Source: a virus. From it: a DNA stretch of 64,000 nt. The stretch spans positions 24,724-88,723 of the IMG/VR virus record IMGVR_UViG_3300038461_000101. The stretch is one strand, 5' to 3'. Numbering within the stretch: the first letter of the stretch is position 1; the number at the start of each line of letters is the position of its first letter. The position numbers and the translations under genes were made by a program. Positions 5,673 to 62,136 of this stretch are shown here, piece by piece. The notes under the pieces are model-generated. The model did not search any database, had not been told where the DNA came from, and worked only from the letters and a program-made list of their open reading frames with translations.

Positions 5673-5930
5673 ATGGATATGACTGAATTGCAAGTGCTCA
5701 AAGGTGTGTATGACCATATCTCGATGCGCCGGATCAGCGTGTTGATTGGCAAAACATTGAGAACGGTTCAACGGCTCTGTTTCCAATTGGAAAAAGAAGG
5801 GTACATCAGTAATCCTTGGAAGCCAGGGGAGCCTCGGGTAGCTGTGGCTCGAACCCTGACAGCCAAGGGGAAGTTGGTATTGGCCCAGGAAGGGCTGATC
5901 CCTTACGAGAAATCCAATGGAAGCCGATAG
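5673..5930 (+). CDS. winged helix-turn-helix DNA-binding protein
   Basis: SMRRISVLIGKTLRTVQRLCFQLEKEGYI...RTLTAKG wHTH pattern; AGGAG RBS. Confidence 0.75.
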   Translation: MDMTELQVLKGVYDHISMRRISVLIGKTLRTVQRLCFQLEKEGYISNPWKPGEPRVAVARTLTAKGKLVLAQEGLIPYEKSNGSR

Positions 5931-6360
5931 TATTACCAGCCTTACTCAGCATGTCTCTTTACTTGTTCCTGACAAGGAATGGTTTGAGCGGGGCTGTAGA
6001 ATGGCTGTAGCCAGGATTGAGCAGACAATCGCCAAGGAAATGTTTGAAGAACTCAAACGGACCCAAGGCCGATGTGTATTAGAGTATGTAATTGAGTCCT
6101 GGGATGATTATGCTGCTGCCTGCAGAGTTTTCAAAGGCCATTATCAGATCGTGGTATTGGCTCCTCATCAAATTCAACTGCCAACCTTCGTCTACCTTGA
6201 CCACAATGGGGAAGAAGAATGGAAGTGTCCTTATTGTGGTGCCATCAACAAAATGACCGCAACTTATTGCGGTGAGAAGCATGAACACGCTCATGGGTGT
6301 GGACACCCAAGAGAGAAAGAGAGATTTGCCGGTGAATACGCAAGCTTACATGCTGGATGA
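5917..6360 (+). CDS. zinc-ribbon protein
   Basis: WKCPYCGAIN...YCG...GCG. Confidence 0.65.
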   Translation: MEADSITSLTQHVSLLVPDKEWFERGCRMAVARIEQTIAKEMFEELKRTQGRCVLEYVIESWDDYAAACRVFKGHYQIVVLAPHQIQLPTFVYLDHNGEEEWKCPYCGAINKMTATYCGEKHEHAHGCGHPREKERFAGEYASLHAG

Positions 6361-6736
6361 AGAAGTAAAACAGTTCGTAATCAGTTGTCGTCGTCGGGCT
6401 CGTGTCAACAATGATCCTGGTAAGTGCACCTGGAAGCAACGTACCTGTTTGCTTCTAACAATTGAAGCTGCTTTGATCGACCCGAAGAATCGGGATAGAG
6501 TGCTGTCGGCCATCACTGGTCTTGACATCAAATCACAGAACCAGCTCACGTTCTGGTATCACTCGGTCCTTATTGACGAGACAAAGGATGGTAAAGCAGA
6601 TGGAATCCTCGGACGCATTGAGGCAGTTGTTACACAGTACCCTGTCCAACAGGCGTACAAAATATATCCCTGGGATCGGCCCGGTATTGATCTGCCCGTT
6701 CTGCAGCAAGCCAATTCGCAAGGGGCAAATCTATGA
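6332..6736 (+). CDS. hypothetical protein (start uncertain)
   Basis: ORF in operon. Confidence 0.5.
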   Translation: MNTQAYMLDEEVKQFVISCRRRARVNNDPGKCTWKQRTCLLLTIEAALIDPKNRDRVLSAITGLDIKSQNQLTFWYHSVLIDETKDGKADGILGRIEAVVTQYPVQQAYKIYPWDRPGIDLPVLQQANSQGANL

Positions 6737-7073
6737 CATGCACGAGGGACTCATATCGAGAGGCCAGGTTCAGAAATCGAATAACCCGGATCTCATATTC
6801 CATCCCTGTAATCTGGTTTTTAGGCATCACAATAGTCAACGCTGTTACCATACTGGCGGTGTGGGTGGTGATGAGGGCTTTCAGATTAGTGCCGTCTATC
6901 TGGTAGAGTACGAAGGAATGGAAAAAGTCAGGGACTGGCTCTATTCGCTGATCCCTGAGTTTGAAGTGGTGGCAGCTCAGGCGTTTCGCCGGTTCAACCT
7001 GCTATATCCGATGAAATCATCGGTATATCAGATGCCTCATGAGTTTCATGATGCTCATGGGAAACCAGCTTAG
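6522..7073 (+). CDS. putative HNH/NinG-like Zn nuclease (start uncertain)
   Basis: CPFC...DMHE...NLVFRHH...CYH arrangement resembles a His-Me finger. Confidence 0.45.
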   Translation: MTSNHRTSSRSGITRSLLTRQRMVKQMESSDALRQLLHSTLSNRRTKYIPGIGPVLICPFCSKPIRKGQIYDMHEGLISRGQVQKSNNPDLIFHPCNLVFRHHNSQRCYHTGGVGGDEGFQISAVYLVEYEGMEKVRDWLYSLIPEFEVVAAQAFRRFNLLYPMKSSVYQMPHEFHDAHGKPA

Positions 7074-7099
7074 GCTGTGGTTCTGAAGGAGAGTAGAGC

Positions 7100-7684
7100 A
7101 TGTTCAATTTCAAGCCGAAGGATACAAATAAGCCAGCAAAGAAGGTCCCCTTCTTCGAGGATGCTACAGCTGCCAATGGTTGGGCTGGCATCAACACTGG
7201 CAAAAGCATTGATACACTCAAGTCAGAGATCATTTCTGCCATGAGCAAATTGGGAGGCTTGGTAACAGGCTTCGAACTTGGTACCTGGGGCACCCCGGAT
7301 GTTCTTCGAGAGGGCTACAGGATCCATTATGTGGTGGAATCTCCTGATGGGCATCATGTCCCTGGTTACATTGATGTAGCCGGTCTTCCAATCAAGCCGG
7401 TAGAAAGATATGACAATAGGCGCAGACGCACTACAGAACAGAAGCAGGAGGATGCTCTCAAGGCCGCTCTCTGGAATGTGAAGGAATGCCTTGATCATAT
7501 GTGGAAGCTGCAGTTGCTTTCACCGGGGTTTGCTGCATTGATGCCCTTCATGATTGCCACGAAGGGCGTAAACTTGACTCAGCTTTGGAGTGAAACTTCA
7601 ACCATGAAGCCACTCTTGCCTATGGCAGATGACTTCAAGGCTGAGACCGGAGATATTATTGATGGTCAAGTAAAGGATATGTAA
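7100..7684 (+). CDS. hypothetical protein
   Basis: AAGGAG RBS, 194 aa. Confidence 0.65.
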   Translation: MFNFKPKDTNKPAKKVPFFEDATAANGWAGINTGKSIDTLKSEIISAMSKLGGLVTGFELGTWGTPDVLREGYRIHYVVESPDGHHVPGYIDVAGLPIKPVERYDNRRRRTTEQKQEDALKAALWNVKECLDHMWKLQLLSPGFAALMPFMIATKGVNLTQLWSETSTMKPLLPMADDFKAETGDIIDGQVKDM

Positions 7685-7685
7685 G

Positions 7686-7886
7686 ATGAGTAAAAAATCT
7701 TTGCAGGTATTTGAACAAAAGGATTTGATATTGCCTACTTTGCATTTGTCAAAGCCCTGTCACATTTCGATTTCTCTTTCTCGTACACGAATCTATCTCA
7801 CAATTGGTCCTCGTGATTGGGAGTGGGATAGGCAGACTGGAGAATTGATTGGAGCAGGTACTTCTTTGGTATCGGAGAATAGATGA
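7686..7886 (+). CDS. hypothetical protein
   Basis: AAGGA RBS, fills the operon gap. Confidence 0.55.
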   Translation: MSKKSLQVFEQKDLILPTLHLSKPCHISISLSRTRIYLTIGPRDWEWDRQTGELIGAGTSLVSENR

Positions 7887-8110: not shown

Positions 8111-8668
8111 ATGGCAACCGGGGATGTCCATCTCAAAGCTATTACCAGAGCAATCATCCCTGTCTGGATGGTTGCAGGTATATTCTTGGTTTTGATACAG
8201 AACTGGACTCCCTGTTTTGTTTCCCTGGGCTTATTCTTTCTGGTCTGTCGATATGTGGATCCCGATATGGACTCTTTCTCTACACTGGCTGCCGAATGGC
8301 GCATCAAAAGAGAATTGAATTTGCTTGGTGTATACATGGCCGGTTGGTGGACTATCTATGCGGCTCAGATGGATTGGATCCTACGAAAAGGAAGCCATCG
8401 AAGTTGGTTGACCCATTCCATCCTTCCCGGTACTTTGACCAGAGTGATCTGGTTCGATCTTCCCTTTGTATTTCCAATGGCCTGGCTGAGCAATAAGTAT
8501 CCCTGGGTGATAGCCAATATTTACCCGGCAATTCCACAGGTTTTGCTTGGACAGTTCCTTGCTTTCGCAATTGGTGATATGATACATCTGTATCTGGATG
8601 ATATGCTACCATTCTTCAGATACCACAAAGAGGAAAACCATAATGAATTTACCAATCATAGGAAATGA
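8111..8668 (+). CDS. DUF2227-like putative metal-binding membrane protein
   Basis: TG..H, DPDMD, HRSWLTHS, GT..R, D..HLYLD; hydrophobic segments. Confidence 0.65.
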   Translation: MATGDVHLKAITRAIIPVWMVAGIFLVLIQNWTPCFVSLGLFFLVCRYVDPDMDSFSTLAAEWRIKRELNLLGVYMAGWWTIYAAQMDWILRKGSHRSWLTHSILPGTLTRVIWFDLPFVFPMAWLSNKYPWVIANIYPAIPQVLLGQFLAFAIGDMIHLYLDDMLPFFRYHKEENHNEFTNHRK

Positions 8669-9578
8669 AGATGAAACACTTGTCCAAGCTGAACTTGTTC
8701 GTATGGAAGGCCACGAACAGATCTATCGGCGCACCCATCCGTTTCCCGAGCCTAAGAGACTTAGTTTTCTTCGGGATTTGGGCATTGAAGCGGTCTCTAC
8801 TTTCCTGTCTGGCGTTGGCGGTCTGGTTCTGGCTGGTGTTCGTACTGCTACCGTGTTTTACCTCTCTGAGGCAAACCTATTATCTACCTATACTATTGCC
8901 GGTGCTTTCGCTGCTGGCTTCAAGGCGGCAGCTCCTGGAGTGGCTACGGTATCCGCCCTTCTCGCTGTAGAAGGGACACTGTTTGCCAAGGGATTGAAAG
9001 CCGGTCGACTCAAGGGGGAAAGCAAGAATGCAAAATGGGACATGATCTTTGCCTTTGCAATATCTCTCATCGCTGGTGTGATCTCATCCACGACACTGGT
9101 CAGGAATGTGCCTGATGTACTGGCAACTTTCTTGAGCTGGTCACTGGTGATCATCACAGGCTTTGGGGCAACTGTACTGGCCTACTATGGGGCTGAGAAC
9201 CTGGGTTCAATCTTTCATACCTGGGGCGACATGCTTACAGCTGCTCAGCTTGAGTTTGAAGCAGTGGAAGCAGAGTGGTTTTCCAAGATGCAGAATGACT
9301 ATCGCAATAAGGGTCGGACTGCCATCTTTGGGCTTGAGAAATATAGTGCCAAGAAAGGAGATGACGAAGTACCCGTTGAAAGAGAAGTAGATCAAGGCGT
9401 AATTGATACTGTGCGTATTTGGCTTGCTGATAATGGTTTGAATGCCTCGCAAGTTGGTGGCAACCGGGATATGTATTCGGTAACTCCATCCGACATTGCC
9501 CGGGCCTGTAATTTGAAATCTGATTCTGTTCGTCCAGCCCTCTTCCGGCTTCGGAAGATGGAAACTCAAGCAACTTAG
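8643..9578 (+). CDS. multi-pass membrane protein with C-terminal HTH
   Basis: About 4 TM segments, then TPSDIARACNLKSDSVRPALFRLRK. Confidence 0.6.
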   Translation: MNLPIIGNEDETLVQAELVRMEGHEQIYRRTHPFPEPKRLSFLRDLGIEAVSTFLSGVGGLVLAGVRTATVFYLSEANLLSTYTIAGAFAAGFKAAAPGVATVSALLAVEGTLFAKGLKAGRLKGESKNAKWDMIFAFAISLIAGVISSTTLVRNVPDVLATFLSWSLVIITGFGATVLAYYGAENLGSIFHTWGDMLTAAQLEFEAVEAEWFSKMQNDYRNKGRTAIFGLEKYSAKKGDDEVPVEREVDQGVIDTVRIWLADNGLNASQVGGNRDMYSVTPSDIARACNLKSDSVRPALFRLRKMETQAT

Positions 9579-9590
9579 AAGGAGGTTGTT

Positions 9591-9889: not shown

Positions 9890-10777
9890 GTGATGCCTAA
9901 AAAAGATGATAAGAACGAAGTGCTAGAAGGTCAGGTTGCTGATGTTCCGGGATCTGAACCACCGGAGCCCGAAGTTCCAACTGAAGCAAGTATCAAGCCA
10001 GACATGGTGAATGTAAAAAATAACGAGATCGTTCCCCATGGAGCAAATGATATTCCAATTCCCAAGGGTGCTACTCCTTTGGAGATGGTCAAGGTCGAAA
10101 CCATTGGCACCTTGAAGCTAAGTGCACATGCTGAAGAAGTGCTCAATCGTAAGATGGAGCCGGAAATAGTGTGCATCCGACCAAACGATGGCATTCTCTA
10201 TATGCCATGGACGTTCTATGCTTCCCGGCTAAACGAGGCTTTTGGTATTGGACATTGGGGCTTGATGCCACAGGGATCCCCTCAGATAACCAAGCAAAGT
10301 CCCAAGCAGGATCTTGTGGTTTGGGGATTTGCTCTCTTTGTCGAAGGAATCTTCATCAGCTTTGCCATTGGCGAGATGTCCTACAATACGACAAATGCTA
10401 AGATGTCCTATGCAGATGCTGCCGAAGGTGCCAAAAGTAATTCCCTGGCCCGTAACTGCAAGAACTTGGGTATGACACTTGAGTTATGGGATAAGGAATG
10501 GTGCGAAGAATGGAAAAGGAAATTCGCAAGGAAAAATGGTGATGATTGGGTCAGGCAGATACCCAAGAAGCCAGTCGATACTATAGCTACCGTGAAGGCA
10601 TTATGGATTGCCCAGGCCATTGATAAGGGTATCCTGATTGACCGCAAGGATGAAGGTGGCTTCAAGATCCTGACTACCTTATTGGGTGAGACCTACACCA
10701 AATTGAGTGATGAAAATCTGGCCGCCAATAAGAAGGCTGGCCTTGAGTTGATCGCCGGGTGGAAACCTTCGCTCTAG
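9890..10777 (+). CDS. Rad52/Mgm101-like single-strand annealing protein
   Basis: IRPNDGILYMPW..Y..RLNEAFGIGHWGLMP and AEGAKSN.L.R.CK.LG...ELWD match the Mgm101/Rad52-22 core. Confidence 0.8.
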   Translation: MMPKKDDKNEVLEGQVADVPGSEPPEPEVPTEASIKPDMVNVKNNEIVPHGANDIPIPKGATPLEMVKVETIGTLKLSAHAEEVLNRKMEPEIVCIRPNDGILYMPWTFYASRLNEAFGIGHWGLMPQGSPQITKQSPKQDLVVWGFALFVEGIFISFAIGEMSYNTTNAKMSYADAAEGAKSNSLARNCKNLGMTLELWDKEWCEEWKRKFARKNGDDWVRQIPKKPVDTIATVKALWIAQAIDKGILIDRKDEGGFKILTTLLGETYTKLSDENLAANKKAGLELIAGWKPSL

Positions 10778-10838
10778 GCGAGTAATTTCCAATTGGAAGA
10801 TAGGGGGATCTTCCATCTTATTATGAGAGGAGCACATT

Positions 10839-14642: not shown

Positions 14643-15488
14643 TCAGGGTTTGACATAGCTCCATCCTGCTGGCATAACATGCCCACAATTTGGACAAAGA
14701 AGTGCTGGAGTAGGTGGTGGTGGTACAACTGGAGCCGGAAGAGTTTTCGCCCAATCAATATCCAGAGACTTGCCTTCGCCTATTCCGGGTGGTGTCGGCC
14801 AGATTGGGATGGCATTTCCATTACCAGCATATTGCCACTTATCCCAATCTTTCCAGGGGGGAGGAACCTTGATGTATTGCTGTGCAGCATACCAGGCCAG
14901 CCAGAACTTATAGGCAGCCCAACCGGGATCGGGTGTCATCCACTGTAGCCAGTAGTAATAGCCGCTATAGATGTCAGGGGTCAATCCCAATCCTTTCTGA
15001 ACACCAGTGAGCCAGTTCCAGACGTTGCCTTCAACAACAGCCCTGCTCATGGTCAATGGTTGGCTCAGGCTCATCAACCTGTATTTCAAGGGCCTTCGAG
15101 GAGAACCGATCAGTCTGCGTGTTTTGGGCATTACGTCGATGATCACGCCTCGGTTGCCACCATACTTGGTTGCATAATTGGTGGGATCCATTTCAAGGTC
15201 GAGTACAGGGGCTGCCTGACCTGGATCTGGTTTCATCAACGAAATGAAGAAGGCAGTCTGGAGAGGAAGAGAGAAACGCCAGTCAAGGAAGGCGTATCCG
15301 CCCCATGGCAATCCAACTGCTTCTGCACCAGCTCGGTATTCCAGGAAGCGTTTGTCGATATTCGTACCCCAACAAACACGCAGATAGACGAAACTGTAAA
15401 GAGCCTTGAGCTTTACAAAGTCTACCGGCCCGTTGTATTCCGAAAGATCACAGAAAGCATAATAGGCCGCCAAATCAGTTGGGTTCAT
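14643..15488 (-). CDS. GH25 muramidase endolysin
   Basis: DLSEYNG, D.RF, GGYAF, PVLDLE, WLAWY, WQY motifs. Confidence 0.85.
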   Translation of the reverse strand: MNPTDLAAYYAFCDLSEYNGPVDFVKLKALYSFVYLRVCWGTNIDKRFLEYRAGAEAVGLPWGGYAFLDWRFSLPLQTAFFISLMKPDPGQAAPVLDLEMDPTNYATKYGGNRGVIIDVMPKTRRLIGSPRRPLKYRLMSLSQPLTMSRAVVEGNVWNWLTGVQKGLGLTPDIYSGYYYWLQWMTPDPGWAAYKFWLAWYAAQQYIKVPPPWKDWDKWQYAGNGNAIPIWPTPPGIGEGKSLDIDWAKTLPAPVVPPPPTPALLCPNCGHVMPAGWSYVKP

Positions 15489-16225
15489 AATGCCTTCAGA
15501 TCTGCCAGTAACTGGCTGTAATTGAAACCGGGCGCATATTCTGGCTTCAGGGCTTCTTCAGGGAGGATGGCATATGCCTCCTCCACACAGCAGTCCCACC
15601 AGGACCAGGTTGCCCGTTGAACAGCACCCCAGGTAAGGACACTGACGCTGGAGCTGTCATAGGTGGTGGCAAAGACTGCATGACCATCTTGCGTCAATGG
15701 CCCCGGAGTCCATTCTTTACCTTCATTGAAGTCCTTGATGCAGTTTTCCTGCACCTGGAACCCAATATATACCCCACCATATAACCAGTTTGCCAACATG
15801 ATCTGGTCATGGTTTGTGGGCTTGATGCTAACAAAGGCACCAATCTTTTCACCAAAGACCGAATGCTTACGGATGTAATTCAATACATCCAACTCGTTTA
15901 GCCCATTATCTATACCATGGGCCAACCAGAGATACTTGGCGATAACGCTCCGGGATGAAGCAATTTCTTTCTTTCCCAGGAGCCCATGGTAGATCGTAGA
16001 CGCATGGGCTACACCAGCGAACGTACAGTCCCCGTACCGATCATTTCCATCCATTGGAAAAAGCACGGATGGATCTGAGATCTTCAAGTTCTGGTACACC
16101 CGGGTAAGAGAACTATATGCAGTTGGGGGTGTTGGGAAAGTCACTCCAAGATAATTCTCAAAGTTCAGGGTACGGTAATGGGGATCGTTCTTTACAGCCA
16201 ACTTGCCAAACTTCAGGTCGTTCAT
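15485..16225 (-). CDS. papain-like cysteine peptidase
   Basis: GND.YGDC..AG (Cys), GHAV (His), TWG. Confidence 0.65.
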   Translation of the reverse strand: MNDLKFGKLAVKNDPHYRTLNFENYLGVTFPTPPTAYSSLTRVYQNLKISDPSVLFPMDGNDRYGDCTFAGVAHASTIYHGLLGKKEIASSRSVIAKYLWLAHGIDNGLNELDVLNYIRKHSVFGEKIGAFVSIKPTNHDQIMLANWLYGGVYIGFQVQENCIKDFNEGKEWTPGPLTQDGHAVFATTYDSSSVSVLTWGAVQRATWSWWDCCVEEAYAILPEEALKPEYAPGFNYSQLLADLKAL

Positions 16226-16460: not shown

Positions 16461-18014
16461 CTATGAGGCGAATGCGCCAACACTGGCGGCTGCAGGAAGT
16501 CTGCGGCTGCGCCAATAACTGCCAAAGAGTGGGCTAATCGAACCAGTTGTTGCAGTAGCTTGGATCTTCAATGAAGTACCTGCATTATTCTTTAGCCAGA
16601 TTTTGAAGTGAGCATAATGTGTAGCGGCTGATAGAGAAGCTGTCGTAATTGTATATACTGCTGAAGTAGTCATTGCTTGAGCCTCAAGCATTGTAGCAGT
16701 TCCTGGAACTGCAGTCACACCAACAACCGGTGACATCTCAAAGAACACATTCATCTCGGTTGGTGCACCACTATTGGTCAACGTCCATACAATGGTAGAT
16801 GCAGTGACCTTAGTAAACCATAATTCAATCTCGATTAAGTAATAGGCACTGGCTACCAGTGGGATGTTTGATGTCGTTCCAAAGAAGTTGGCAATGGTTG
16901 TTATCGAACCTGCTGAACTTTGCAGACTAAAGAATTGCTCAACAGGGATAATGCCACGGCCAGAGGTTACTTCATTGGTCATGTAGGAGTTGATGGAGTC
17001 ATATTCTCGGGCTCCAGCCACCTGAGCAGAGAGAAGAATACCCGTTCCTTGGTAATAGGCAGGAGCCTGACCTGCAGTAGCGGTTCCAACCATGAATTTG
17101 ACAGTACCCGTAAAGATAGCACCAGCTAGGAGAGCGCAAGCCAATAAGGTTTGTGCCTGAGCTACGGTCATGGCGATAATGTCGCCTGTAGCAATTCTTC
17201 CTACAAAAGTGCTGGCCGGGACAGACATGGCAACTGGAGCCGCAGATCCTGATGTGTTATTTACTACCACTGTATCGGTAGCAATCGTTCCAAGATCACC
17301 AATCATATAAGCCAGAAGAGTTTTTGCCTGAGTAACTGTCATGGCTATGATGTTGCCAGATGCGATGCGGCCAACAAAAGTACTCGCTGCAACCGCCACA
17401 GCAGTAATAACGGCTGAACCGGCAGTGGCATTTGCCATAATGGTATTTGCAGCAACTGCAGCAAGATCACCGACCGCATATGCAAGTAAGGTTTTTGCAT
17501 TTGCCACAGACATGGCCGTGACACTACCGGAAGCCAAACGTCCTACGAAAGTGCTGGCAGCAATTGCGATCGCTGCTGGAGCTGCAGCACCTCCTGTATT
17601 ATTTCCCATCAGGGTAGCATCAGCTACTGTGGCAAAATCTGCAAAGGTATAAGCCAACATCGTCTTTTGTTGGGCAACGGTAAGGGCAACAACATGGCCT
17701 CCAGTAATGCGACCTATCACGGTTTGGGCTGGAACTGCGATTGCTACTGGTGCTGCATCCCCTGCTGTATTGTTGGCAAGAACAGTATCCGTGGCAATTA
17801 CTGCCAGATCTCCAATGGCATAGGCAAGAAGGGTTTTGACCTGAGCAACTGAAAGGTCATCTATATGGCCCCCGGTAATGCGTCCAAGCAGGGTCTGCTC
17901 AGCAAGGGTTACTGCTGAGGGAACTGCTGCACTGGCTGTGGCGTTGGCAAGGACTGTATCAGCTGCTTGCGTGTAAAGTTGCTTTAGCTTGATGCCTGTT
18001 GGTGTCGCTGGCAT
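16461..18014 (-). CDS. tail fibre-like protein with five 57-aa repeats
   Basis: Repeat T..AN.T...A.P.A......T..GRI..G...A.TVAQ.KTLLAY..GD; Ala/Thr-rich; in the tail module. Confidence 0.7.
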   Translation of the reverse strand: MPATPTGIKLKQLYTQAADTVLANATASAAVPSAVTLAEQTLLGRITGGHIDDLSVAQVKTLLAYAIGDLAVIATDTVLANNTAGDAAPVAIAVPAQTVIGRITGGHVVALTVAQQKTMLAYTFADFATVADATLMGNNTGGAAAPAAIAIAASTFVGRLASGSVTAMSVANAKTLLAYAVGDLAAVAANTIMANATAGSAVITAVAVAASTFVGRIASGNIIAMTVTQAKTLLAYMIGDLGTIATDTVVVNNTSGSAAPVAMSVPASTFVGRIATGDIIAMTVAQAQTLLACALLAGAIFTGTVKFMVGTATAGQAPAYYQGTGILLSAQVAGAREYDSINSYMTNEVTSGRGIIPVEQFFSLQSSAGSITTIANFFGTTSNIPLVASAYYLIEIELWFTKVTASTIVWTLTNSGAPTEMNVFFEMSPVVGVTAVPGTATMLEAQAMTTSAVYTITTASLSAATHYAHFKIWLKNNAGTSLKIQATATTGSISPLFGSYWRSRRLPAAASVGAFAS

Positions 18015-19122
18015 TGGGATATTCCTTTTTTAGCCAATTCATATTGGTCTTTTCTGGATACTCTTTGTTCCATCCTTCCTTCTCCAGAAGGGAAGACAAT
18101 CTATTGAAATACTCTCTATACATCATGCCACAGTGATCCATGGAAAAGTTGGCAATTGCATATTTTCGAATGACTTTGGGTTCAAAGTTTTCCAGATGTT
18201 GAGCTGCCCAAACAAAGTCATCTCTTACTGCACATCGCCAACCAGTTACTCCATGAATGATGGTCTCGGGATACACCCCAAAGTTGGATACGATCACTGG
18301 TGTTCCCGACATAGCTGCTTCGATAGTAACTCCCCCGAATGGTTCAAGATAGATGGTAGGCGAGAAGACTGCCTGGGCCTCGGCCAGGAGTTTTGCACGC
18401 TGTTTTGGATCATTGATCGGACCGAGGAACTCGATGTTTTTCCAATTGGAAAGTTCGACATCTTCCAGCTTTCCCTGACCGGCTATGACCAATTTCTTCC
18501 CAAGCTGCTTGCAAATATCGGCTGCAATGTTGATACCCTTGCGATAGATCAACCGGCCAAGGTAAAGGAAGTAATCTTCTCGCTTGTCGGCAACGTAGAA
18601 GGCACGTGGATCAAAGTAATTGGGGATAACAGTGTCGAACCAGCGTCCGTTCTCGATCCCCTGCTTTCCATAGATGAAGTTCATCCAGGCATTACTTTCA
18701 AAGACAACATAGGGGGCAAAGGTTCCTGGATAACCCACGCCCGATTCTACCTGTAGGGGATAATCGGTCAGCCCACGGCTGATGTCGATCTGTCCAAAGG
18801 GGTAAAGGATTATGTCCTGGGGAGTTGAGTTGGCTCGGATCTCCCGAATGGCATTGATATTGAAGAGGCGGGAAGCATCAGTTTCATCAATGTTATAGAA
18901 GTCTTCTGGCTTGACGTTCCCATAATCAATATCCCAATGCTTTCGAGAAAGAACCGTGATGTGCTTGCAACCAACTTCAGCCCCTTCAGTTCCATAATGG
19001 ATTACTTCGAACCCCTCCTTTGGAAGCATCTTGCTGAGTTTCCAAACCTTCTGAGTATAGGCGCAGGTTTGCCACTTAGGAGAGGTGATTGTATGTGGAA
19101 GTCCGATCAGGTGAATTTTCAT
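17959..19122 (-). CDS. GT4 (GT-B) glycosyltransferase
   Basis: FLYLGRLIYRKG, EPFGGVTIEAAMSGTPVI. Confidence 0.88.
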   Translation of the reverse strand: MKIHLIGLPHTITSPKWQTCAYTQKVWKLSKMLPKEGFEVIHYGTEGAEVGCKHITVLSRKHWDIDYGNVKPEDFYNIDETDASRLFNINAIREIRANSTPQDIILYPFGQIDISRGLTDYPLQVESGVGYPGTFAPYVVFESNAWMNFIYGKQGIENGRWFDTVIPNYFDPRAFYVADKREDYFLYLGRLIYRKGINIAADICKQLGKKLVIAGQGKLEDVELSNWKNIEFLGPINDPKQRAKLLAEAQAVFSPTIYLEPFGGVTIEAAMSGTPVIVSNFGVYPETIIHGVTGWRCAVRDDFVWAAQHLENFEPKVIRKYAIANFSMDHCGMMYREYFNRLSSLLEKEGWNKEYPEKTNMNWLKKEYPNASDTNRHQAKATLHASS

Positions 19123-19123
19123 T

Positions 19124-19960
19124 TTAGAGTATCCCGTATATGGCCTTTAGATATAGTTCAACATCATTGCGGTGAGAATCACTTATGCTTTCATGATAGC
19201 ACAAAAATGCTGCCATATCGCCATTGTATTTGCCATCGTTGCCAAGGTTGATGGTACCGATCGTAGGATCATTCCAGTTCCAGGTAGCCAGATCTGGATT
19301 GGTATGAGTGGTTATAAGAGAACCATTCTTATAATACTTTACAGTTCGTCCAGTTACTACATCCTGCGTATGGACAAACTCAAGTATGACTGGATTGGTA
19401 TCAGGCAACGTGAAGTCAACCGTATCGGCTCCAGTATCATCCCACTGTCCAGTGCTATAGTTACGCAGCCATTCTGGACCAGTGTTGGGTGCACCATCAA
19501 AGATACCTATTGGATTGACAGTGGCAGGCTTGAGCACAAAGAAGTAGGAGGAACTGTTTCCTGGAGCCATTGTAGCAAACTTGAGATAGAGTGAATTGGC
19601 ACCGTCAAAGCGATAGACTGATCGACCATTGATAATGTTGGTCTTGTAGGTCGGTCTATTCGCTGCCGATGTCTGCAAACCGTGCATGGCAGCTGCACTT
19701 TGATCGGTTGCCTTGTAAACTGTATCTCCATCCACGCAGAGAGTAACACCATTGTCCTTGTAGGATTGGAGTCGAGCTTCCACCCAGGTTGACAGGTTGG
19801 TCTGGTAGGCCAGGGCTGGATCTGTATTGGTAATTGCCTTTTGGATGCTCACAAATAACATCGTAGTACCAGTACAAACGAAGGTGAGTAGATCAACCGA
19901 GTTCTTATAAGTGGACAAGGATGGTGCGGTATTGGAGGGCCAGTAAAAGGCAGAGTTCCA
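19124..19960 (-). CDS. C-terminal part of the fibre protein (LamG/ConA-like domain), continues the upstream gene in the -1 frame
   Basis: [25 protein letters not shown] completes the domain begun upstream; DGD.V....DQS, NRPTY....ING....RFDG pattern. Confidence 0.6.
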   Translation of the reverse strand, partial: WNSAFYWPSNTAPSLSTYKNSVDLLTFVCTGTTMLFVSIQKAITNTDPALAYQTNLSTWVEARLQSYKDNGVTLCVDGDTVYKATDQSAAAMHGLQTSAANRPTYKTNIINGRSVYRFDGANSLYLKFATMAPGNSSSYFFVLKPATVNPIGIFDGAPNTGPEWLRNYSTGQWDDTGADTVDFTLPDTNPVILEFVHTQDVVTGRTVKYYKNGSLITTHTNPDLATWNWNDPTIGTINLGNDGKYNGDMAAFLCYHESISDSHRNDVELYLKAIYGIL

Positions 19961-24729: not shown

Positions 24730-25706
24730 GCGAGGTTCTTCCTTCCGTTCATGGTCATGGAAAACGAACCATTCTCAAGGGAAATTTGAATGTCTTCGAT
24801 GATGGCATCTTCGGTGATATGGGTTTTGGTACCGGCCACAATCAAATCGAAGTGCATCAAATCGGAGATCTCCGGTCGGGGATCCAGACGCATTTGAGCC
24901 GTGATTGGAGTTCGATGTTCCAGGGCAATCTCTTGGATAGTATGAGTGGCTTCTACTGCACCAATATCCAACTCTGAGAGTTGGTAAAGTCTGGTAATGA
25001 ACCCAACCTGCTCAGCAGCCAGGGCATAAGTCGAGATACCTACATCGTAGTAGTAGACCAAACCATCTGAGGAAATATCGTTGTTGTTGACCTGCTTGTT
25101 GTCATAACTCCAAACATGGTTGGCTGCCACGGTGTCTTTGATGGTGTGATAGGTGAAGGCAATTGCCCGGTCGGTTTCAGGGAAGATCCAGACTGGCCGT
25201 TGCTGGTAGATCGACTGCAGGGCATTGTCACCAGTGGTTTCATAGTCCACATACACAGCATCACGCCAATCAGGAATCTCTTCTCTGCGAATGTTGGTGA
25301 GTGTCACGGCACCACCTAGGGCTTTGAGATCGGCCACCGTGGTGTAATCGGCATACTTGGTCAGGGCCATGACGTAGGAGTAAACCCATCGGTTGTTGCA
25401 GTAAACCGAGATTGCTACATCGTGAATATAGATCCAGACATCCAACGCTGGATTAGTGGTATTTCCAATTGGAAAATCGGATGTGTCAACGATTGTGCCA
25501 CCAAGAAGAGTGGATACTTGCATATACCGATTTCCACCATGAGTGGTCGTGCCAATTTGAATAGTGAGAACCTTGTATCCCTTATCGGGATCTGTGTTCT
25601 CTTTTCCAAATGCAGCAATGCCCTGGATGTCGGTTTCCAGAAGCAAGGAAATTGCATCATTGACGGTATAGGTGTAGCGCAGGGAGAAGGCACCGTTCTT
25701 GTTCAT
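24726..25706 (-). CDS. putative tail tip/hub protein
   Basis: C-terminal DPRPEISD...IIEDIQI...FSMT resembles Tal/hub C-termini. Confidence 0.5.
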   Translation of the reverse strand: MNKNGAFSLRYTYTVNDAISLLLETDIQGIAAFGKENTDPDKGYKVLTIQIGTTTHGGNRYMQVSTLLGGTIVDTSDFPIGNTTNPALDVWIYIHDVAISVYCNNRWVYSYVMALTKYADYTTVADLKALGGAVTLTNIRREEIPDWRDAVYVDYETTGDNALQSIYQQRPVWIFPETDRAIAFTYHTIKDTVAANHVWSYDNKQVNNNDISSDGLVYYYDVGISTYALAAEQVGFITRLYQLSELDIGAVEATHTIQEIALEHRTPITAQMRLDPRPEISDLMHFDLIVAGTKTHITEDAIIEDIQISLENGSFSMTMNGRKNLA

Positions 25707-32000: not shown

Positions 32001-35000
32001 AGGCTTGGTTGATTTCTGGTACCAGTGATCTGTGCTTGAGGATAACCAAGACCATAGAGAAGGTTCTGGTAAGCTCCTAAGTAATCAACACCCTGAGCAT
32101 ATCCCTCTGCCATACGTTGTGCCCCAACCTGAGAGAGTGGAGCTGTTGGATTTTGCACCATGAAAGTTGCAGGAGCAATCAGAGTTTCCTGGGTACCCTT
32201 ATATCCTTTGTCTACCATGTTGGTAGCAAGGGCTGCAGCGGCCTCGGTTGGAGATCCTACAGAAGCCATGAAACCCATTGCTTTGGCAAAAGATGATGGA
32301 GTACCAGTTTCACTAAGAGCAGCTGTAGCTCCCTTATACATTGTACTGGATTGCTGGATAGCAGCCAGTTTTGTAGCAGATCCCTGGATACCAAGAGCTG
32401 TACCGATCTTGGCAGTCTCGGTTGAGAAGTATGCTTCTATGTCCGATCCCATGAAACCATAGGTCAAGTTGGTATTATTACCTGGCATTGCTCTTGCAGC
32501 GGCATAACCTACCGATGTAGTATCCCGGGCCTCAGCAGAAGCAACAAAGGATCCTACACCTACTGCCAATGCTGCTGCCAATCCTAACTTAGCTCCAGCA
32601 CCTGGATTGGTTTCTGCAAGTTTCGGGAATGCACTTTGGAGATAGAACTCACTGGCACCGGCTGCAGCTACACCTGCAAATATTGATTGACCCAATGCCA
32701 TAGGTGTGGGGTTCTTGGCACTCCAAACATCCATCATCTGTTGAGGAGTTTGTCCACCATAACGGGCTGCCATTTGTGAGGCTGCATAAGCTGCCGGAGA
32801 CACAAAGGGTGCATTGGCACCAAGAACACCATTGGCATAATTCGCCATAGCCTGCTGAGCCTGCTGAGCTTCAGGGGCACCATAACCAACACCTTCAGTG
32901 ATAATGCCAGCAATACTTCTGGCATACATCAAGCCAAATCCACCAAGAGCTTTACGAGCAAATCTTGCAAATGGGGACATGGCAGCATTGACAGCTATGG
33001 CTTTGTCGCCCTGCATTTCGGCTGATGTTTGTTCGAGTAGGCCCTGGTCAGCCTGAGTAATCATGCCACCATTAGCTTTGGTTCTGGCAGAGATCTCAGC
33101 CACAGTTGCCACATTAGAAGCAAGTCTGGACTCAGCAAGTGGACCCTTGAGGGCTGCTTGAGCTTTCTCAAAAGCTTCACCAGTACTCTTTACGGCAGCG
33201 GCATGTTGAGTTACTGATTTGGTATCATCTCTTAAAGCGGCTGCATGGGCTACTGCTGTCTTCTGTAATTCATCCACGGCTGCCTGGGCAGCTGGATTGA
33301 GTTGTGTTCTCTTCTCAAAGGATCCACTCAAAACATCAGCACCACTTTCACCCTTGATGGCTTTCAGTGTACCGGCCATCTGAGTGAAGGAATCTGGTAG
33401 GGCTGCCTTGGTGACATCACCAGTTAGACCCGACTGCATTCTCACAACTGCATTAGCTACACCAGCAAGTTCTGGATTGGTTCGAAGGATCCCTTGAAGG
33501 GCTTGGGCTTTTTCTTGATAACCCATTCCTGGATTGAAGAGGCCTCGTTGGGCCATTGCCGCATTGAGTTTGGCAAAGTCCTGTCCTCCAGTACCTACTC
33601 CAGAGACCAGATTATTGATTTGGTTCAGCTGCTCAACATTGCTTGTGATCGAACCAAGAACTCCCTGCAGACCAAAACCTACATTGATTGCATGACCTAA
33701 CTGGCCGGGAGCTTCTTCAGCAGCCTCAGTATTTTCAATCATTGCCCGTTCACTAGGCGATATATCAATAGGATCTGCAAAGGAAGTAGCTACAGATCCC
33801 ATGATCACTTTCTTCTTGATATTCGCCAATGTCTTGATACGGGCAGCTTCAGGGGCCAACTTACCAATTAGTCGAAGAGCATTGGGACCACCAAGCCCCT
33901 TACCTACACCTTCAACAATTTCTTTTGTGGTGGGTGGATTGCCAGTGCGAGGAAGAAGATTCTCTGCTTCCAGAATGTCCTGAATACGATTGACCGTTTC
34001 AGTGCCAGTAACATCCTCACCCATATCGGTTACAGGACCAGCCATGCCAATGGCAGCCAGGGCTGCTTGGATTGCATCCTTGGCTACTCCATGGCTCATT
34101 CTGAATATCTGTGAAGCTTCATTCCCGAGCATAACTTTCTCGACATCGGGATTGTAGGTCGTGGAACCAGGTTCAGCCAGATAGGAACTTACTCGCTGAT
34201 TTTGGTTATTGAAAACAGGGATCTCGTTGGTTCTGAAATGACCAATGATGGTATCGCCTTCGCCACCGTAGAAGTTGATCCTTCCACCTTGGCGAGGAAT
34301 GATTGTTTCACCAGCCTGAACCGTAATATCTCCATGACCTTCAGCATCTTTTCGACCATGTAGATCTTCAGGACGAATGGGGCCACCAGTATCGAATCGC
34401 TTATCACCACTCTCTGATTTCTTGGGCCACTTTGGAATTTCAGGGCCGCCTGATTCTGGCTTAGGAGGCCAGGGATAGGCTGTCTCATCACCAAAGGGAA
34501 TTTCTGGAATGTCATCCCAATTGAAGTTATCAGGTCCATCCAGAGGAGTTGGAGTTTTCGGAAGTTGTCTGGCCGCATCTCTCTTCGCTTTTTGGTTGGC
34601 TTTCCATTCTGCAAGCCATTTGGCATATTCTGCAGGATCTGAAATGTGACCAGATTTTGTCGGCCCATTGCCAGATGTTCCAATTGGAAGATCGGTAGAT
34701 GTAGTGGGTGGACCCATTGGAGGAAGACCCTGATTGGGTACACCCGTAGGAAGTGAAGCCAAAACTTCTCCCTGCAGGGGAGTAAGCCTCAAAGCTGATT
34801 CAATTACTTTAGTAGGAGTAACTTGACCAAGTGCATTCTTGGCAAGCTGATTGGCACCCTTATGGAGCAATTGGATGGTCTTCCCCATCTGTGCTTCAAC
34901 TTTTTTGTCAGCCAGGACCGCTGCATCGGCAGGTGACATTGGGGTAGCAGCCCTTGCCCCATAGGTTCCCATGAGTTCTTCAAGAACTGCTTCAGGAGCC

Positions 35001-43997: not shown

Positions 43998-44021
43998 AAT
44001 TGATTACCTCAATTTCAGAGA

Positions 44022-44741
44022 TTATTTCTTTCCTTTTTGACTCAAGTTTAGGTAGTTCTGGAAATGCAGGTTATAACCTGCAGAGTCGCCCTTGAACATG
44101 GCGGCATTTGCCTGCTTGAGTTCTTCATCGGCTGAGGCGTTGCCACTTCCACCACCGCCACCAGCCGGAGGAGGCGGGCCTCCGCCCGCACCCAAACTGG
44201 AGATCTTCGCAACAGTTGCCAGCTTGTCGGCAAAGGATTGGAAGAGTTTTTCAACATCTTCGTCCTTGGCATCTACTGGAGATTCGGGAAGCTGACCATC
44301 GGCTTCCCAGGATGCGAGAAACGGGTATTTGGCGAGAATGATTCTGGCACGTTGCAGGGCTGACTTGGCAGTCGTTCGTTCGAGGTCTGCTTCCTCAAAT
44401 TGGGTCTTGAGGGTTTCATGCTCGGTACCGAGGGCTGTATGGGCCTGTTGCAAGGTTTCCAGTGCTGTCTTATGGGTAAGCACTTCTCCTTCCAGAGTAG
44501 TGACTTTTGGCGTGAGCTTATTTGCGATCTCACGCTGAAGACCAGCGTAACCATTCTTCCAGCGATCCGCTTCAGCGAGTGCTGCAGCTAACTGTTGTTC
44601 AACGGTTAGTCCTGCTGCGGGTAGGTTCTGGCTTTGGGGAGCAGGGGAATTTCCACCGGCTGCAGGGGCAGGATCTGCAGGAGGTGTGGTTCCACCGCCA
44701 CCACTAGTACCACCATCAGGGGACAAGAATTTGCGAAACAT
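44022..44741 (-). CDS. capsid scaffolding protein
   Basis: Pro/Gly-rich termini and central coiled coil, directly upstream of the capsid gene. Confidence 0.7.
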   Translation of the reverse strand: MFRKFLSPDGGTSGGGGTTPPADPAPAAGGNSPAPQSQNLPAAGLTVEQQLAAALAEADRWKNGYAGLQREIANKLTPKVTTLEGEVLTHKTALETLQQAHTALGTEHETLKTQFEEADLERTTAKSALQRARIILAKYPFLASWEADGQLPESPVDAKDEDVEKLFQSFADKLATVAKISSLGAGGGPPPPAGGGGGSGNASADEELKQANAAMFKGDSAGYNLHFQNYLNLSQKGKK

Positions 44742-44755
44742 GATTTCTCCTTTAC

Positions 44756-44977
44756 CTAGATTTTGCCTTCTGCCTTATCTTTTTCCCACGCAGCATGAGC
44801 TTTTGCGGGTAGAAACTTGGCAGCACGGCGTAAGATGGAACGGCGTTGAGACTTGGATGTGTTCTTGCCTCTGAGCCGTATAGCAGAGTCCGCCTGGGAT
44901 GCGTTCTTGATTGGGAACCGTTCATCACCAGTCGCACTATACTTTTCACGATCACCCTTATCTACTTTAGCGGCCAT
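44756..44977 (-). CDS. small basic head-module protein
   Basis: RFPI.N...A.SAIRL motif; Arg/Lys-rich. Confidence 0.55.
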   Translation of the reverse strand: MAAKVDKGDREKYSATGDERFPIKNASQADSAIRLRGKNTSKSQRRSILRRAAKFLPAKAHAAWEKDKAEGKI

Positions 44978-45006
44978 ATGCACCTTCTTCCAATTGGAAA
45001 AATGGG

Positions 45007-54011: not shown

Positions 54012-54161
54012 TCAATTTACCTTTACTGAAAAAGCTAGTGCTATTGCGATAACACCAATAGCTGTCAAATAAGATGTTGTAAGGCAAACAAGGTAAATTC
54101 CTATCAGTGCAACAAAAACAATAACGATACTTGTCAAAACACGCCTGGTTCGAAGATTCAT
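54012..54161 (-). CDS. 49-aa membrane peptide (not in ORF track)
   Basis: GGAG RBS; MNLRTRRVLTSIVIVFVALIGIYLVCLTTSYLTAIGVIAIALAFSVKVN*. Confidence 0.5.
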   Translation of the reverse strand: MNLRTRRVLTSIVIVFVALIGIYLVCLTTSYLTAIGVIAIALAFSVKVN

Positions 54162-54191
54162 CTGCTCTATCTCCATTCTTCCAATTGGAAA

Positions 54192-54521
54192 TTATAGGTT
54201 TACAAAGATTTTGGTATGGGGATCGACCTTGTTTCTGAAGACTTTGAAAATATCATCCATGTGATCAACACCATCGGCTGGATATAGTCTGTGGTATTCA
54301 TCCTCTCCATACTCAACACGTCCAATGATGGTAACACCTTTCCAGAATTGAAAGTCTATTTGTAGTCTCAGGAAGTCCCTGAGAACATAGACAATGTATC
54401 CATTGAAATAGAATGGTTCCGATCGGTACATCTTAGGAACCGAATCTTCCATTTTGGAGCCACAACCCTTGCACTTTTTGGCAGTTGGTTCATTATCTAT
54501 ACCGCAATAGTTACATTTCAT
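54192..54521 (-). CDS. zinc-ribbon protein
   Basis: MKCNYCG..N....KKCKGCG. Confidence 0.6.
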   Translation of the reverse strand: MKCNYCGIDNEPTAKKCKGCGSKMEDSVPKMYRSEPFYFNGYIVYVLRDFLRLQIDFQFWKGVTIIGRVEYGEDEYHRLYPADGVDHMDDIFKVFRNKVDPHTKIFVNL

Positions 54522-58180: not shown

Positions 58181-58197
58181 CAGGGCAACCTACCAAG

Positions 58198-59147: not shown

Positions 59148-59198
59148 GATGTACTAAAGAGACTGGCAGCAGGTAAAATAGACCCACCAGTCTCTCAT

Positions 59199-59272
59199 GC
59201 CCCTGTAGCTCAAATGGATAGAGCATCGGCCTTCTAAGCCGCAGGTTGCTGGTTCGAGTCCAGTCAGAGGCA
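59199..59272 (+). tRNA. tRNA-Arg(UCU)
   Basis: GCCCCTG acceptor, D-arm GCTC-AAATGGATA-GAGC, anticodon loop CT-TCT-AA, T-loop TTCGAGT; CCA not encoded. Confidence 0.9.
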
Positions 59273-59332
59273 CATGCCCCACTTTTCCAATTGGAAGGTG
59301 GGGTAAATTTTATGCCATGCACGGAGGTGCAG

Positions 59333-60556: not shown

Positions 60557-60721
60557 TAAGCGGGTCCGTTGTGCTGATGATGAGGAGGGCTCCATCAGCA
60601 CAGCAAACCTGCCTATGCAGGAGAAAGGAGAGTCCAAGGGCTTTGCCCAATCTTATCCAACCAGTTATAGGACTGGATCCGTTCTCTATTCACTGTACGT
60701 GGCCTTGAAGGAGGCTTTAGT

Positions 60722-61696
60722 ATGGCTAAGAAACTCTTGAACGTGAACGACTCCAATGCAAAGAACGAGAACGAAACCATCGTTCGCACTCCTATGTTCC
60801 CGGTGATGGCTCACCCCATCCTGGTGGATGTGAAGTTCGGAACTGTGGACATGTACATTGGCTCTGATTCCAATCAGGCGATCCCTGTGCGCAGCCCCCG
60901 TAAGGGTGGCAGCCTGTTCAATGCGGCCTTGCTGCTGAAGTTCGGCACCAAGTTCCCCGTTGTTGAGCTGGGCCTGCATCTGCGGGCTCCTGTGGATTTC
61001 CTCAAGAAAATGGCTATCTGCGAAGATGCTGGCTTCTTGGGTGCTGAGTACGTGCCCCATGGTGCGAACGATCCCCTGGCCGGGCTGGTGCCCGAGGAAG
61101 GGTTCGTGAAGTTGGGTGTGGATTGCGGCCAGTTCAGCGGCTATCCCCTGTTCCTCAAAGAGATCGAAGAGGACATGCCTGGAAGCCAGATGAACGGCAT
61201 CGCTCACAACAACAACATCGTTCGGCAGCACTTCTATATGGATGCGCTGCTGAAGGGTCAGACCTTCCACGTGATGCCCCTCTTCCGCAAGGGCGACGAA
61301 GGTGAGACTGCTCCTACTTTGAGCCTCACTGAACGTCAGATCCTGTGGATCCAGGAGAAGGTTGCTCGTTCCAACATGACAGCCGAAGAACTTGCTGTAA
61401 GCACTGGCGAGATGATCGAAATTGCTCAGACTCGCCGCACCTATGCCAAACTCGGTGACGAGGATAAGGCGTTGGTGGCTGCTGGCAAGCCCGTGACTGC
61501 TCCAGAGTACGTTCTGGCTCGGGATGGTAGCAAGTTGACTTTCGAAGGTTTGGATGGCAAGGTCGTGCGTGAGTTCTATGGTCGTGCCAAGATCGTTGGT
61601 ACCACCAAGATCTCTACCGAGACCTGGCCGGTGTTCGCCAAGGAAGCCAATCTCCGCCGCCATACCGTGGAGATCGTTGAAGTACCTGCTCAATAG
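60722..61696 (+). CDS. hypothetical protein, probably highly expressed
   Basis: AAGGAGG RBS, strong codon bias, own terminator. Confidence 0.7.
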   Translation: MAKKLLNVNDSNAKNENETIVRTPMFPVMAHPILVDVKFGTVDMYIGSDSNQAIPVRSPRKGGSLFNAALLLKFGTKFPVVELGLHLRAPVDFLKKMAICEDAGFLGAEYVPHGANDPLAGLVPEEGFVKLGVDCGQFSGYPLFLKEIEEDMPGSQMNGIAHNNNIVRQHFYMDALLKGQTFHVMPLFRKGDEGETAPTLSLTERQILWIQEKVARSNMTAEELAVSTGEMIEIAQTRRTYAKLGDEDKALVAAGKPVTAPEYVLARDGSKLTFEGLDGKVVREFYGRAKIVGTTKISTETWPVFAKEANLRRHTVEIVEVPAQ

Positions 61697-61712
61697 GCAG
61701 ATACTGTAAGTT

Positions 61713-61736
61713 GGGAGGCCTCGAAAGGGGCCTCCC
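61713..61736 (+). terminator. terminator hairpin
   Basis: GGGAGGCCTC-GAAA-GGGGCCTCCC with a GNRA loop, just after the stop. Confidence 0.65.
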
Positions 61737-61953
61737 TTGCAATTATTCGTTCCATTCATTGATTTTGTGCTAGAATCACCTGTATTCAGCCAGGATTTGC
61801 GATAGATGTACGTCAGATGAGATGCGGTATGCCAATCCATAGCTCGTACACGAGTGAAATACCTAATTGGGCCCCTCGTCGGGTCGTTTTCTGTGCTTGC
61901 GCTCTCTCTTGGGCGTGAGCATTGCCTTATATACGCTCCTGGAGGTGCGTGTC

Positions 61954-62136
61954 ATGCCTAAGATGTCTATTACCCTGAGTGAGAATGACTTGCGAGCCTT
62001 ACTTGTTGAGTTCTATCTCTATGGAAGGCGTGAGCATCACTACGATAAGCCTCACGATAACGCCATTGACCATGCAGATGGCTGGATTGCGGCTCATGAA
62101 GCAGACTTCCAATTGGAAAAACAGCCAGTCGGGTGA
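61954..62136 (+). CDS. hypothetical protein
   Basis: GGAGGT RBS. Confidence 0.55.
   Translation: MPKMSITLSENDLRALLVEFYLYGRREHHYDKPHDNAIDHADGWIAAHEADFQLEKQPVG

Follow-up and report, generated by a model that had tools for sequence, protein, structure and literature searches.

The 12-bp palindrome TTCCAATTGGAA recurs along the genome of an uncultured tailed phage represented by the 88,723-bp IMG/VR virus record IMGVR_UViG_3300038461_000101, and nine of its 13 exact copies lie in the 64-kb stretch of that record analyzed here (bases 24724 to 88723, referred to as the window). The functionally closest described systems appear to be the proteins KorB and Noc with their binding sites. The IncP plasmid RK2, on which KorB acts, has a ParA-type partner. 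KorB is described as loading at a palindrome, OB, as a cytidine triphosphate (CTP)-dependent clamp that then slides to act at a distance (PMC11790492), and OB-type sites can be scattered across a genome (PMC5016525). The phage array resembles the KorB/OB system of RK2 in that a short palindrome is dispersed over a mobile replicon that also encodes a ParB-family protein, which in the phage is the predicted reader. It differs in that RK2 provides KorA as a locking partner (PMC11790492), whereas the present replicon belongs to a tailed phage, and neither a ParA nor an integrase was found in it. Also, OB sites are defined by their distance from promoters, whereas the sites in the phage are evenly spaced and mostly intragenic.

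Noc of Bacillus subtilis is an orphan ParB paralogue with no ParA role and binds many dispersed copies of a palindrome (bioRxiv 10.1101/2022.02.28.481274; PMC7383237). The likeness extends to the protein, as a solved Noc chain (7ol9) is among the best matches to a profile of the family of P0003, the ParB-like protein of the phage. Noc, however, is encoded by the host chromosome and is tied to cell division and the membrane.

Among phages, the closest system appears to be the dyad repeat of the Cluster O mycobacteriophages. Corndog carries 34 invariant 17-bp dyad repeats and 3 further copies with one mismatch in a genome of ~70 kb; these are located between genes, at the 5' ends of genes and inside genes, and a dimeric binder was predicted for them, their function not being known to the authors (PMC4351075). 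Cluster O phages have no integrase or parAB and encode a protein with a ParB-like domain, gp90, which the authors do not link to the repeat (PMC4351075). In contrast to TTCCAATTGGAA, the Cluster O repeat has another sequence, a 3-bp spacer and a density of ~1 per 2 kb, and even spacing is not reported for it. P0003 showed no detectable homology to Cluster O phages, as a tblastn search of 50,697 GenBank phage records gave no match.

Stoperators of Cluster A phages are asymmetric sites, oriented with transcription, that are bound by the lysogenic repressor (PMC4351075). Like the sites described here, they are short, numerous and dispersed, including within genes, and their sequence differs between related phages; there, they are bound by a phage protein. 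The present site, however, is a perfect palindrome in a phage in which no sign of lysogeny and no integrase or ParA was found, and the analogy to stoperators, drawn in a preliminary description of this DNA made from its letters alone, fits poorly. Another likeness concerns the site itself. ParT of the Streptomyces plasmid SCP2 loads at a palindrome containing TCTCCAATTGGAGA (bioRxiv 10.1101/2024.05.08.592561), which has the same TCCAA/TTGGA core and a spacer of 0 and is near the half-site of the L250-type relatives described below. Unlike the P0003 array, ParT has no CTPase domain, works with ParA and acts at a single plasmid locus, the comparison being one of site and published description.

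The palindrome array

The 13 copies of (Y)TTCCAATTGGAA(R), where Y is a pyrimidine and R a purine, probably constitute a genome-wide array of binding or loading sites for the orphan ParB-family protein P0003, comparable to KorB with OB or Noc with its binding sites. All nine positions reported in the preliminary description hold the exact 12-mer (Table 1), and no further copy with 0 or 1 mismatch was found within the window. In 100 dinucleotide-preserving shuffles of the window, the mean count was 0.01 and the maximum was 1, with none at 9. The whole record holds 13 exact copies, and two copies with one mismatch are present outside the window, at genome positions 6192 and 23911. Comparison with Markov models had been proposed as a check; the expectation for the whole genome ranged from 0.006 (order 0) to 0.10 (order 5), and enrichment of >100-fold was kept through order 5. 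The expectations of 0.7 at order 6 and 3.5 at order 7 are higher because these models were trained on the site's own copies. With TTCCAATTGGAA masked, every other 12-mer occurred in ≤3 copies. Chance or base composition as the source of the copies was ruled out by the shuffles, the Markov models and the masked 12-mer count.

The 14-mer form T...A was found three times in the window, as had been claimed, and four times genome-wide. The flanks are constrained across the genome, with a purine 3' of the palindrome in 13/13 copies and a pyrimidine 5' of it in 11/13. Eight of the 13 copies are located in open reading frames (ORFs), where frame 0 (FQLE) is used once, frame 1 (xPIG) four times and frame 2 (SNWK) three times. 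The other five fall in very short intergenic gaps, immediately 5' of ribosome-binding sites or starts. Within the window the split is five genic and four intergenic copies, read as FQLE, SNWK and F/LPIG, in agreement with the earlier count. A protein-level repeat was ruled out, the copies being read in three frames. Since they occupy all three frames as well as short intergenic gaps, selection acts on the DNA. The copies are a real, selected site array, and the array as a feature is conserved across the phage group.

The gaps between the 13 copies range from 2,822 to 10,771 bp, with a coefficient of variation (CV) of 0.376. When 13 sites were placed at random on a circle of 88,713 bp (200,000 placements), a CV as low was obtained with P = 3.3e-4, a smallest gap as large with P = 1.5e-3, and a largest gap as small with P = 4.8e-4. 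The mean density is one site per ~7 kb, and the base farthest from a site is ~5.4 kb away.

The ParB-like protein P0003

P0003 is a protein of 271 residues. Its ORF, at genome positions 16940 to 17755, lies 7 kb before the window and was first flagged by a weak six-frame ParB_N signal. The translation contains the ParB arginine patch (GFGRRRLMA) and an ENAQRE box followed by a helix-turn-helix (HTH), and two PHROG families with the name "ParB-like partition protein" were matched, phrog_4715 (E 3.3e-9) and phrog_1033 (E 1.4e-8). An exhaustive search gave 298 representatives with E ≤ 1e-3; aligning 40 of them showed no variation at G62, R65 and N109 and hardly any at A68, E108 and R112. The profile of these 40 members, searched against solved chains, matched Helicobacter pylori ParB bound to parS (4umk, E 2e-15), Noc (7ol9, E 7e-13), Spo0J (1vz0, E 8e-12) and Caulobacter ParB (6t1f, E 6e-10). 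The match spans positions 33 to 197 (about 200), corresponding to the N-terminal domain and HTH region of the ParB and Noc chains, and the family stretches GRkRLlA and ENaQR align with GERRLRA and ENIQRE of the H. pylori protein. The chains matched at E ≤ 1 were ParB, Spo0J, Noc and "ParB family" chains, none of them named KorB. The JGI label "ParB-like chromosome segregation protein Spo0J" is attached to 3/11 of the listed close homologues, and P0158, a homologue with 60% identity, has a precomputed match to PF02195. P0158 and P0159, which share 60 to 62% identity with P0003, are encoded on metagenome contigs of 35 and 22 kb, respectively. Conservation within the family extends to the C-terminal ~60 residues, which have no fold assignment. 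By its N-terminal motifs and HTH, P0003 is on sequence grounds a ParB-family protein.

Searches of this phage and of its relative G011 (see below) gave neither a ParA-type ATPase nor an integrase above cut-off, although these negatives are soft in that the same first-pass filter once missed P0003 and a divergent ParA could escape it. The six-frame search for ParA was made with the AAA_31 model, which matched 14/14 control genomes, and Pfam scans of 20 + 10 + 66 + 7 + 7 ORFs of this phage, the last two sets accompanied by three proteins each that came from other loci or had already been scanned, likewise yielded no ParA-type family. A weak match to Phage_integrase (11.2 bits) was below the cut-off and was rejected as an integrase. 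P0003 therefore appears, from the searches made, to be an orphan ParB-like protein with no ParA found. Approximately 0.5 kb downstream of its gene, at genome positions 18265 to 19401, a helical protein of 378 residues (P0164) is encoded that has no family match and has a counterpart at the same place in G011 (34% identity). No Walker A motif was seen by eye in this conserved neighbor, and its Atlas structure look-up gave no usable match, all template-modelling (TM) scores being <0.5.

Comparison with related phages

G011 is a viral contig of 82,851 bp, judged 53% complete, and was the only contig found to encode a P0003 relative (39% identity) when viral contigs were scanned with a seven-member alignment. 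It is syntenic with the whole phage (51 rows in blastp for 48 query ORFs, among which are several shadow frames), and the shared proteins include a capsid-region protein (56% identity), the portal (50%), the terminase (49%) and a giant protein (27 to 31%). The top 11-mer of G011 was TCCAA-S-TTGGA (S, C or G), with nine copies against 0.04 to 0.10 expected, preceded by a pyrimidine and followed by a purine in 9/9 copies. Its half-site is that of the TTCCAATTGGAA phage, with one central base added. Spacer 0 was counted 14 times in this phage and 0 times in G011, whereas spacer 1 was counted nine times in G011 and 0 times here. P0003 homologues and arrays with related half-sites hence occur jointly in both genomes.

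The positions of some sites also correspond. Window site 25463 (FPIG) and G011 site 23022 (FQLG, TCCAAGTTGGA) occupy the same aligned residues of homologous genes, and the two forms differ by substitutions within the same four codons, with the length unchanged. In the collinear structural block, three site pairs are 0, ~370 and ~550 nucleotides apart (P = 6e-4 by simulation), a G011 site being found ~370 nucleotides from the aligned position of window copy 34678. The G011 terminase homologue (43748 to 46414) is ~1 kb longer than that of this phage and matches it in two separate segments; the extra ~1 kb may be an insertion such as an intein.

Two further lineages carry palindromes of their own with related half-sites. 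In a lineage with 58 to 60% identity in the large terminase subunit (TerL), the 21-bp sequence TTTCTCCAAT-W-ATTGGAGAAA (W, A or T) was found twice in the 9-kb locus L250, and in a lineage with 48% TerL identity, AAWTCTCCTA-S-TAGGAGAWTT was found twice in the 13-kb locus L253. These 21-bp palindromes are located at 3863 to 3883 in L008, at 729 to 749 and 8965 to 8983 in L250, and at 2342 to 2362 and 6562 to 6582 in L253. Neither the exact 12-mer nor CCAATTGG was present in the loci of eight relatives (L008, L009 and L250 to L255, partly redundant), and the motif was absent from the post-portal gap of L008, L009 and L253 that is homologous to the gap holding copy 44988. Sites both unconserved and unbound had been named as an outcome that would speak against a site network. 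The exact motif is indeed unconserved, but the relatives carry related half-site variants in its place. When viral contigs were scanned with the relatives' palindromes, 18 and 32 stretches were obtained, and the kin among them were contigs of already known relatives only (IMGVR_UViG_3300032053_005926 by tblastn and L009 by the listing).

The array is thus conserved as a feature and lineage-specific in sequence, as would result if a protein encoded by the phage and the sites it reads co-evolved. Because the palindrome sequence differs by lineage, a fixed host factor is argued against. It is accordingly regarded as very improbable that a host protein reads the palindrome, or that the palindrome copies a host-iterated motif comparable to HIP1 in cyanobacteria, with the phage exploiting or evading a host system. 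The differences among related phages, in the distance between half-sites (0, 1 or 3 bp) and in the half-site itself, fit a phage-encoded reader better. The phage has been seen in peat metagenomes only, and three copies of the 12-mer do occur in an unrelated cyanobacterial provirus region rich in HIP1. On the other hand, the phage itself has only 4 HIP1 octamers, and three arbitrary bacterial genomes hold 2 to 4 copies of the 12-mer per 5.8 to 7.8 Mb.

The palindrome in unrelated elements

The provirus region in question, G002 (IMGVR_UViG_2917587430_000002, loci L127 to L129), is 52 kb long, is unrelated to the phage and contains 91 HIP1 octamers. Its three copies, at 1943, 8729 and 33676, are all of the T...A 14-mer form, and one of them forms the center of a perfect 26-bp palindrome, which has G+C-rich arms and resembles a terminator hairpin. 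A second element, contig L123 (IMGVR_UViG_3300044448_003328), carries two exact copies and one variant (second T to C) within 65 bp, at positions 132 to 196. The variant recurs in this phage at genome position 6192. The cluster lies at the contig end, before an HTH gene resembling that of the small terminase subunit (TerS; 301 to 873) and a large terminase gene (1500 to 3107), and looks like a pac or operator region. No member of the ParB-like family was found in G002 or L123 with a hidden Markov model of that family.

In genome contigs, a scan with the 16-mer gave at least 120 single, apparently chance matches, with no cyanobacterium among the matches listed, and a protein scan found no relative. 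Also among the matches listed, the A+T-rich 16-mer form of the palindrome was found in six Paraburkholderia, Caballeronia or Trinickia genomes (L164, L165, L172, L219, L230 and L240); it is unexpected in these G+C-rich genomes and may be a conserved site there. The 12-mer also turns up in papers on Drosophila Insv/BEN sites, and a BEN-domain reader was rejected, as a six-frame BEN search of the phage was empty.

The cluster in L123 bears on the possibility that the sites are the targets of an enzyme, such as the C5 methyltransferase of the phage or a site-specific nickase or endonuclease generating the ends from which recombination-dependent replication would proceed by means of the Mgm101/Rad52-like annealase, or that they are dispersed packaging-initiation sites. 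The phage does encode a C5 DNA methylase (window 558 to 2051, E 1.2e-32) and an annealase of the Mgm101/Rad52 type (E 5e-33). However, no homologue of the methylase was found in the 82.9 kb of G011, which is incomplete and keeps the array, and no sequence-specific nuclease appeared in any family scan. The pac-like position of the three-copy cluster before the TerS-like gene would suit packaging, but L123 and this phage have no protein in common, and no result supported the packaging or injection signals suggested in the preliminary description for this phage. The avoidance of short palindromes (see below) indicates that restriction pressure is real; nothing known to us accounts for both the enrichment and the even spacing of a methylase target. 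Enzyme targets are hence considered a rather remote explanation.

The phage and its individual sites

The record was rated complete by CheckV. The same 10 bases stand at its start and at its end, so that the assembly is probably circular or permuted. Recognizable genes of this uncultured tailed phage include those for a terminase, a portal, a GH25 lysin and DnaB-like and DnaC-like replication proteins, along with two radical-SAM proteins and one tRNA-Arg. A TagF-like glycerophosphotransferase of 359 residues (Glyphos_transf, E 1.2e-9; genome 24193 to 25272, window -530 to 549) spans the window start. Near-identical phage DNA was found in peat metagenomes of several studies, and almost identical phage was present in four peat runs, with 2 differing positions in 18 kb; among the data sets listed for the phage, none was of RNA. 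No close relative was found among the 50,697 GenBank phage records with two 25-kb megablast queries.

Short palindromes are strongly avoided genome-wide, with TTAA at 12 copies versus 142 expected, CTAG at 45 versus 136 and CGCG at 12 versus 54. TGGCCA, GATATC, ATCGAT, ATGCAT, GAATTC and GCCGGC have 0 copies each versus 17 to 42 expected, and GATC has 673 copies, ~2 times the uniform expectation. The avoidance suggests a host rich in restriction systems.

The window sites and two further candidate binders are listed in Table 1. The copy at 59285 is nested in a longer imperfect inverted repeat (CCCCAC...GTGGGG) that is followed by a T-rich run and then ATG. For the site at genome position 15906, naive ORF calling gave a minus-strand ORF; the plus-strand ORF 15245 to 16033, which has a homologue with 47% identity in G011, is likelier to be the gene.

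Table 1. Palindrome copies in the window and genes for other candidate DNA-binding proteins (window coordinates)
Feature	Position	Strand	Context
P0001, 85-residue winged-helix protein	5673..5930	+	Rival binder or accessory-factor candidate; contains a site
P0002, 326-residue protein; hydrophobic segments, HTH-like C-terminus	8598..9578	+	Second rival binder candidate
Palindrome copy, 14-mer form T...A	5781..5792		Inside small winged-helix gene, codons F-Q-L-E, frame 0
Palindrome copy	10787..10798		Gap; 9 nucleotides past Mgm101/Rad52-like gene (9890-10777), 40 nucleotides short of start at 10839
Palindrome copy, 14-mer form	18440..18451		Inside glycosyltransferase gene 17959-19122 (-), read S-N-W-K
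Palindrome copy	25463..25474		Inside gene 24726-25706 (-), read F-P-I-G
Palindrome copy	34678..34689		Inside gene 29081-39481 (-) for 3466 residues, read L-P-I-G
Palindrome copy	44988..44999		Gap between portal gene (45007-46572, -) and small gene; 4-10 nucleotides before start of the latter
Palindrome copy	54179..54190		Nearly fills 15-nucleotide gap between gene 54192-54521 (-) and 54-residue membrane-like ORF 54012-54176 (-)
Palindrome copy	59285..59296		Gap; 11 nucleotides past tRNA-Arg(TCT) (59199-59273), 15 nucleotides before ATG
Palindrome copy	62107..62118		Inside ORF 61979-62434 (+), read S-N-W-K

Discussion

The preliminary description had proposed that selection acts at the DNA level and that the sites constitute a network recognized by a dimeric protein, parS-like sites being one option. 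This part of its reading is supported by the reading frames of the copies, the palindromes of the relatives and the presence of a ParB-family gene. If P0003 acts in the manner of ParB, Noc and KorB, its dimer would recognize the two TCCAA half-sites through the HTH domains, close as a nucleotide-dependent clamp and then spread over the flanking DNA. With sites every ~7 kb, the whole phage chromosome could be covered. The maximum distance of ~5.4 kb falls within the reach of chromosomal ParB spreading. It exceeds the 1.5 kb over which KorB action was shown (PMC11790492). Candidate purposes of such coating would be long-range silencing of the KorB kind, compaction or organization of replicating or packaging DNA, and marking of the phage's own DNA. 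We infer P0003 as the binder, as well as its CTP binding, its sliding and any purpose of the coating.

Several observations weigh against this assignment. The Pfam ParB_N model (PF02195) scored 11.8 bits with P0003 in the six-frame search and 15 bits with its G011 homologue, both below the cut-off of 26.3; hmmscan of P0003 gave no match, and the single P0003 sequence found no ParB chain in the PDB. The spacing in G011, an incomplete contig, is not notably even, with gaps from 1,951 to 22,726 bp. The putative recognition helix is nearly identical in P0003 and its G011 homologue, giving no covariation signal, although this fits the half-site being shared. Half-site spacings of 0, 1 and 3 bp across the lineages would require, as is assumed here, a flexible or re-fitted dimer. 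Provirus G002, with three copies, and contig L123, with its three-site cluster, carry the 12-mer without this ParB-like family, so other proteins can use TTCCAATTGGAA. Sequences of the type TG-n-TA... (TGGTAGAAT, TGGTAAATAT and TTGTAAATAT) stand ~6 to 9 nucleotides 3' of the relatives' palindromes, some of them a few bases before ATG, and by eye look like extended -10 elements. Finally, both phages have also retained the winged-helix protein P0001 and P0002 with its HTH end, and each has a site in or beside the winged-helix gene. Because these two proteins co-occur with the arrays, the two-genome comparison cannot single out P0003.

The last two points bear on the alternative that the sites are operators of another dimeric HTH protein of the phage (P0001, P0002 or an undetected one), acting as a global repressor or roadblock or as a KorA-like partner that locks the ParB-like clamp. 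Locking of a clamp of the ParB type by a small HTH protein is shown in the KorB paper (PMC11790492); in this phage, no such partner was identified. P0001 and P0002 have homologues in G011 with 38% and 37% identity, respectively, and the G011 site is 2 nucleotides past the stop codon of the P0001 homologue, the site here being within the gene. However, the match of P0001 to Pfam HTH_24 (19.5 bits) is below the cut-off of 21.9, and P0002 had no significant match in the family searches (Pfam and PHROG). Pfam scans of the phage revealed almost no DNA-binding proteins besides the weak winged helix of P0001. The location of 5/13 sites directly before ribosome-binding sites or start codons would suit operators, but 8/13 sites here and 8/9 in G011 are inside genes, far from plausible promoters, and even spacing is not expected for promoter operators. 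Similarly, the extended -10-like sequences were seen in L008, L250 and L253, whereas a simple sigma-70 scan that depends on a -35 element predicted no promoter at the palindromes of L008 or L253. Overall, operators of another HTH protein are an unlikely explanation, and the two binders named in the preliminary description (the winged HTH at 5673 to 5930 and the HTH domain of 8643 to 9578) are not the best candidates, the ParB-like gene 7 kb before the window being a better one.

Under the assignment of the array to P0003, a further, tentative proposal can be made, which is possible but remains more doubtful than the assignment itself. In this virulent-looking phage, the orphan clamp and the even lattice of sites would coat the chromosome, and the pair would diversify fast between sister lineages, mainly by the spacer (0, 1 or 3 bp) between constant half-sites, with sites converted in place, to give a lineage-specific "self" label. 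If true, such a label could distinguish the DNA of the phage from that of the host and of co-infecting relatives when DNA is silenced, compacted, protected or packaged.

It would also give a ParB protein a role outside segregation, of which no description was found for phages in the literature searched. Orphan ParB-fold proteins are common on phages and mobile elements, with roles that are largely obscure (PMC12704722), and the literature searches, which did not extend to supplementary tables, turned up no phage for which evenly spaced sites of the ParB type are described. The phage offers a concrete and testable pair, consisting of one protein of 271 residues and one exact site of 12 to 14 bp. 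Its relatives form a natural series in which the half-site is constant and the spacing changed, which lets one ask how a ParB-type dimer re-fits its site. The array also raises the question of what a phage gains from spreading a clamp over its whole genome, and it may offer an explanation for the dyad repeats of the Cluster O mycobacteriophages, where a ParB-like protein is encoded as well (PMC4351075).

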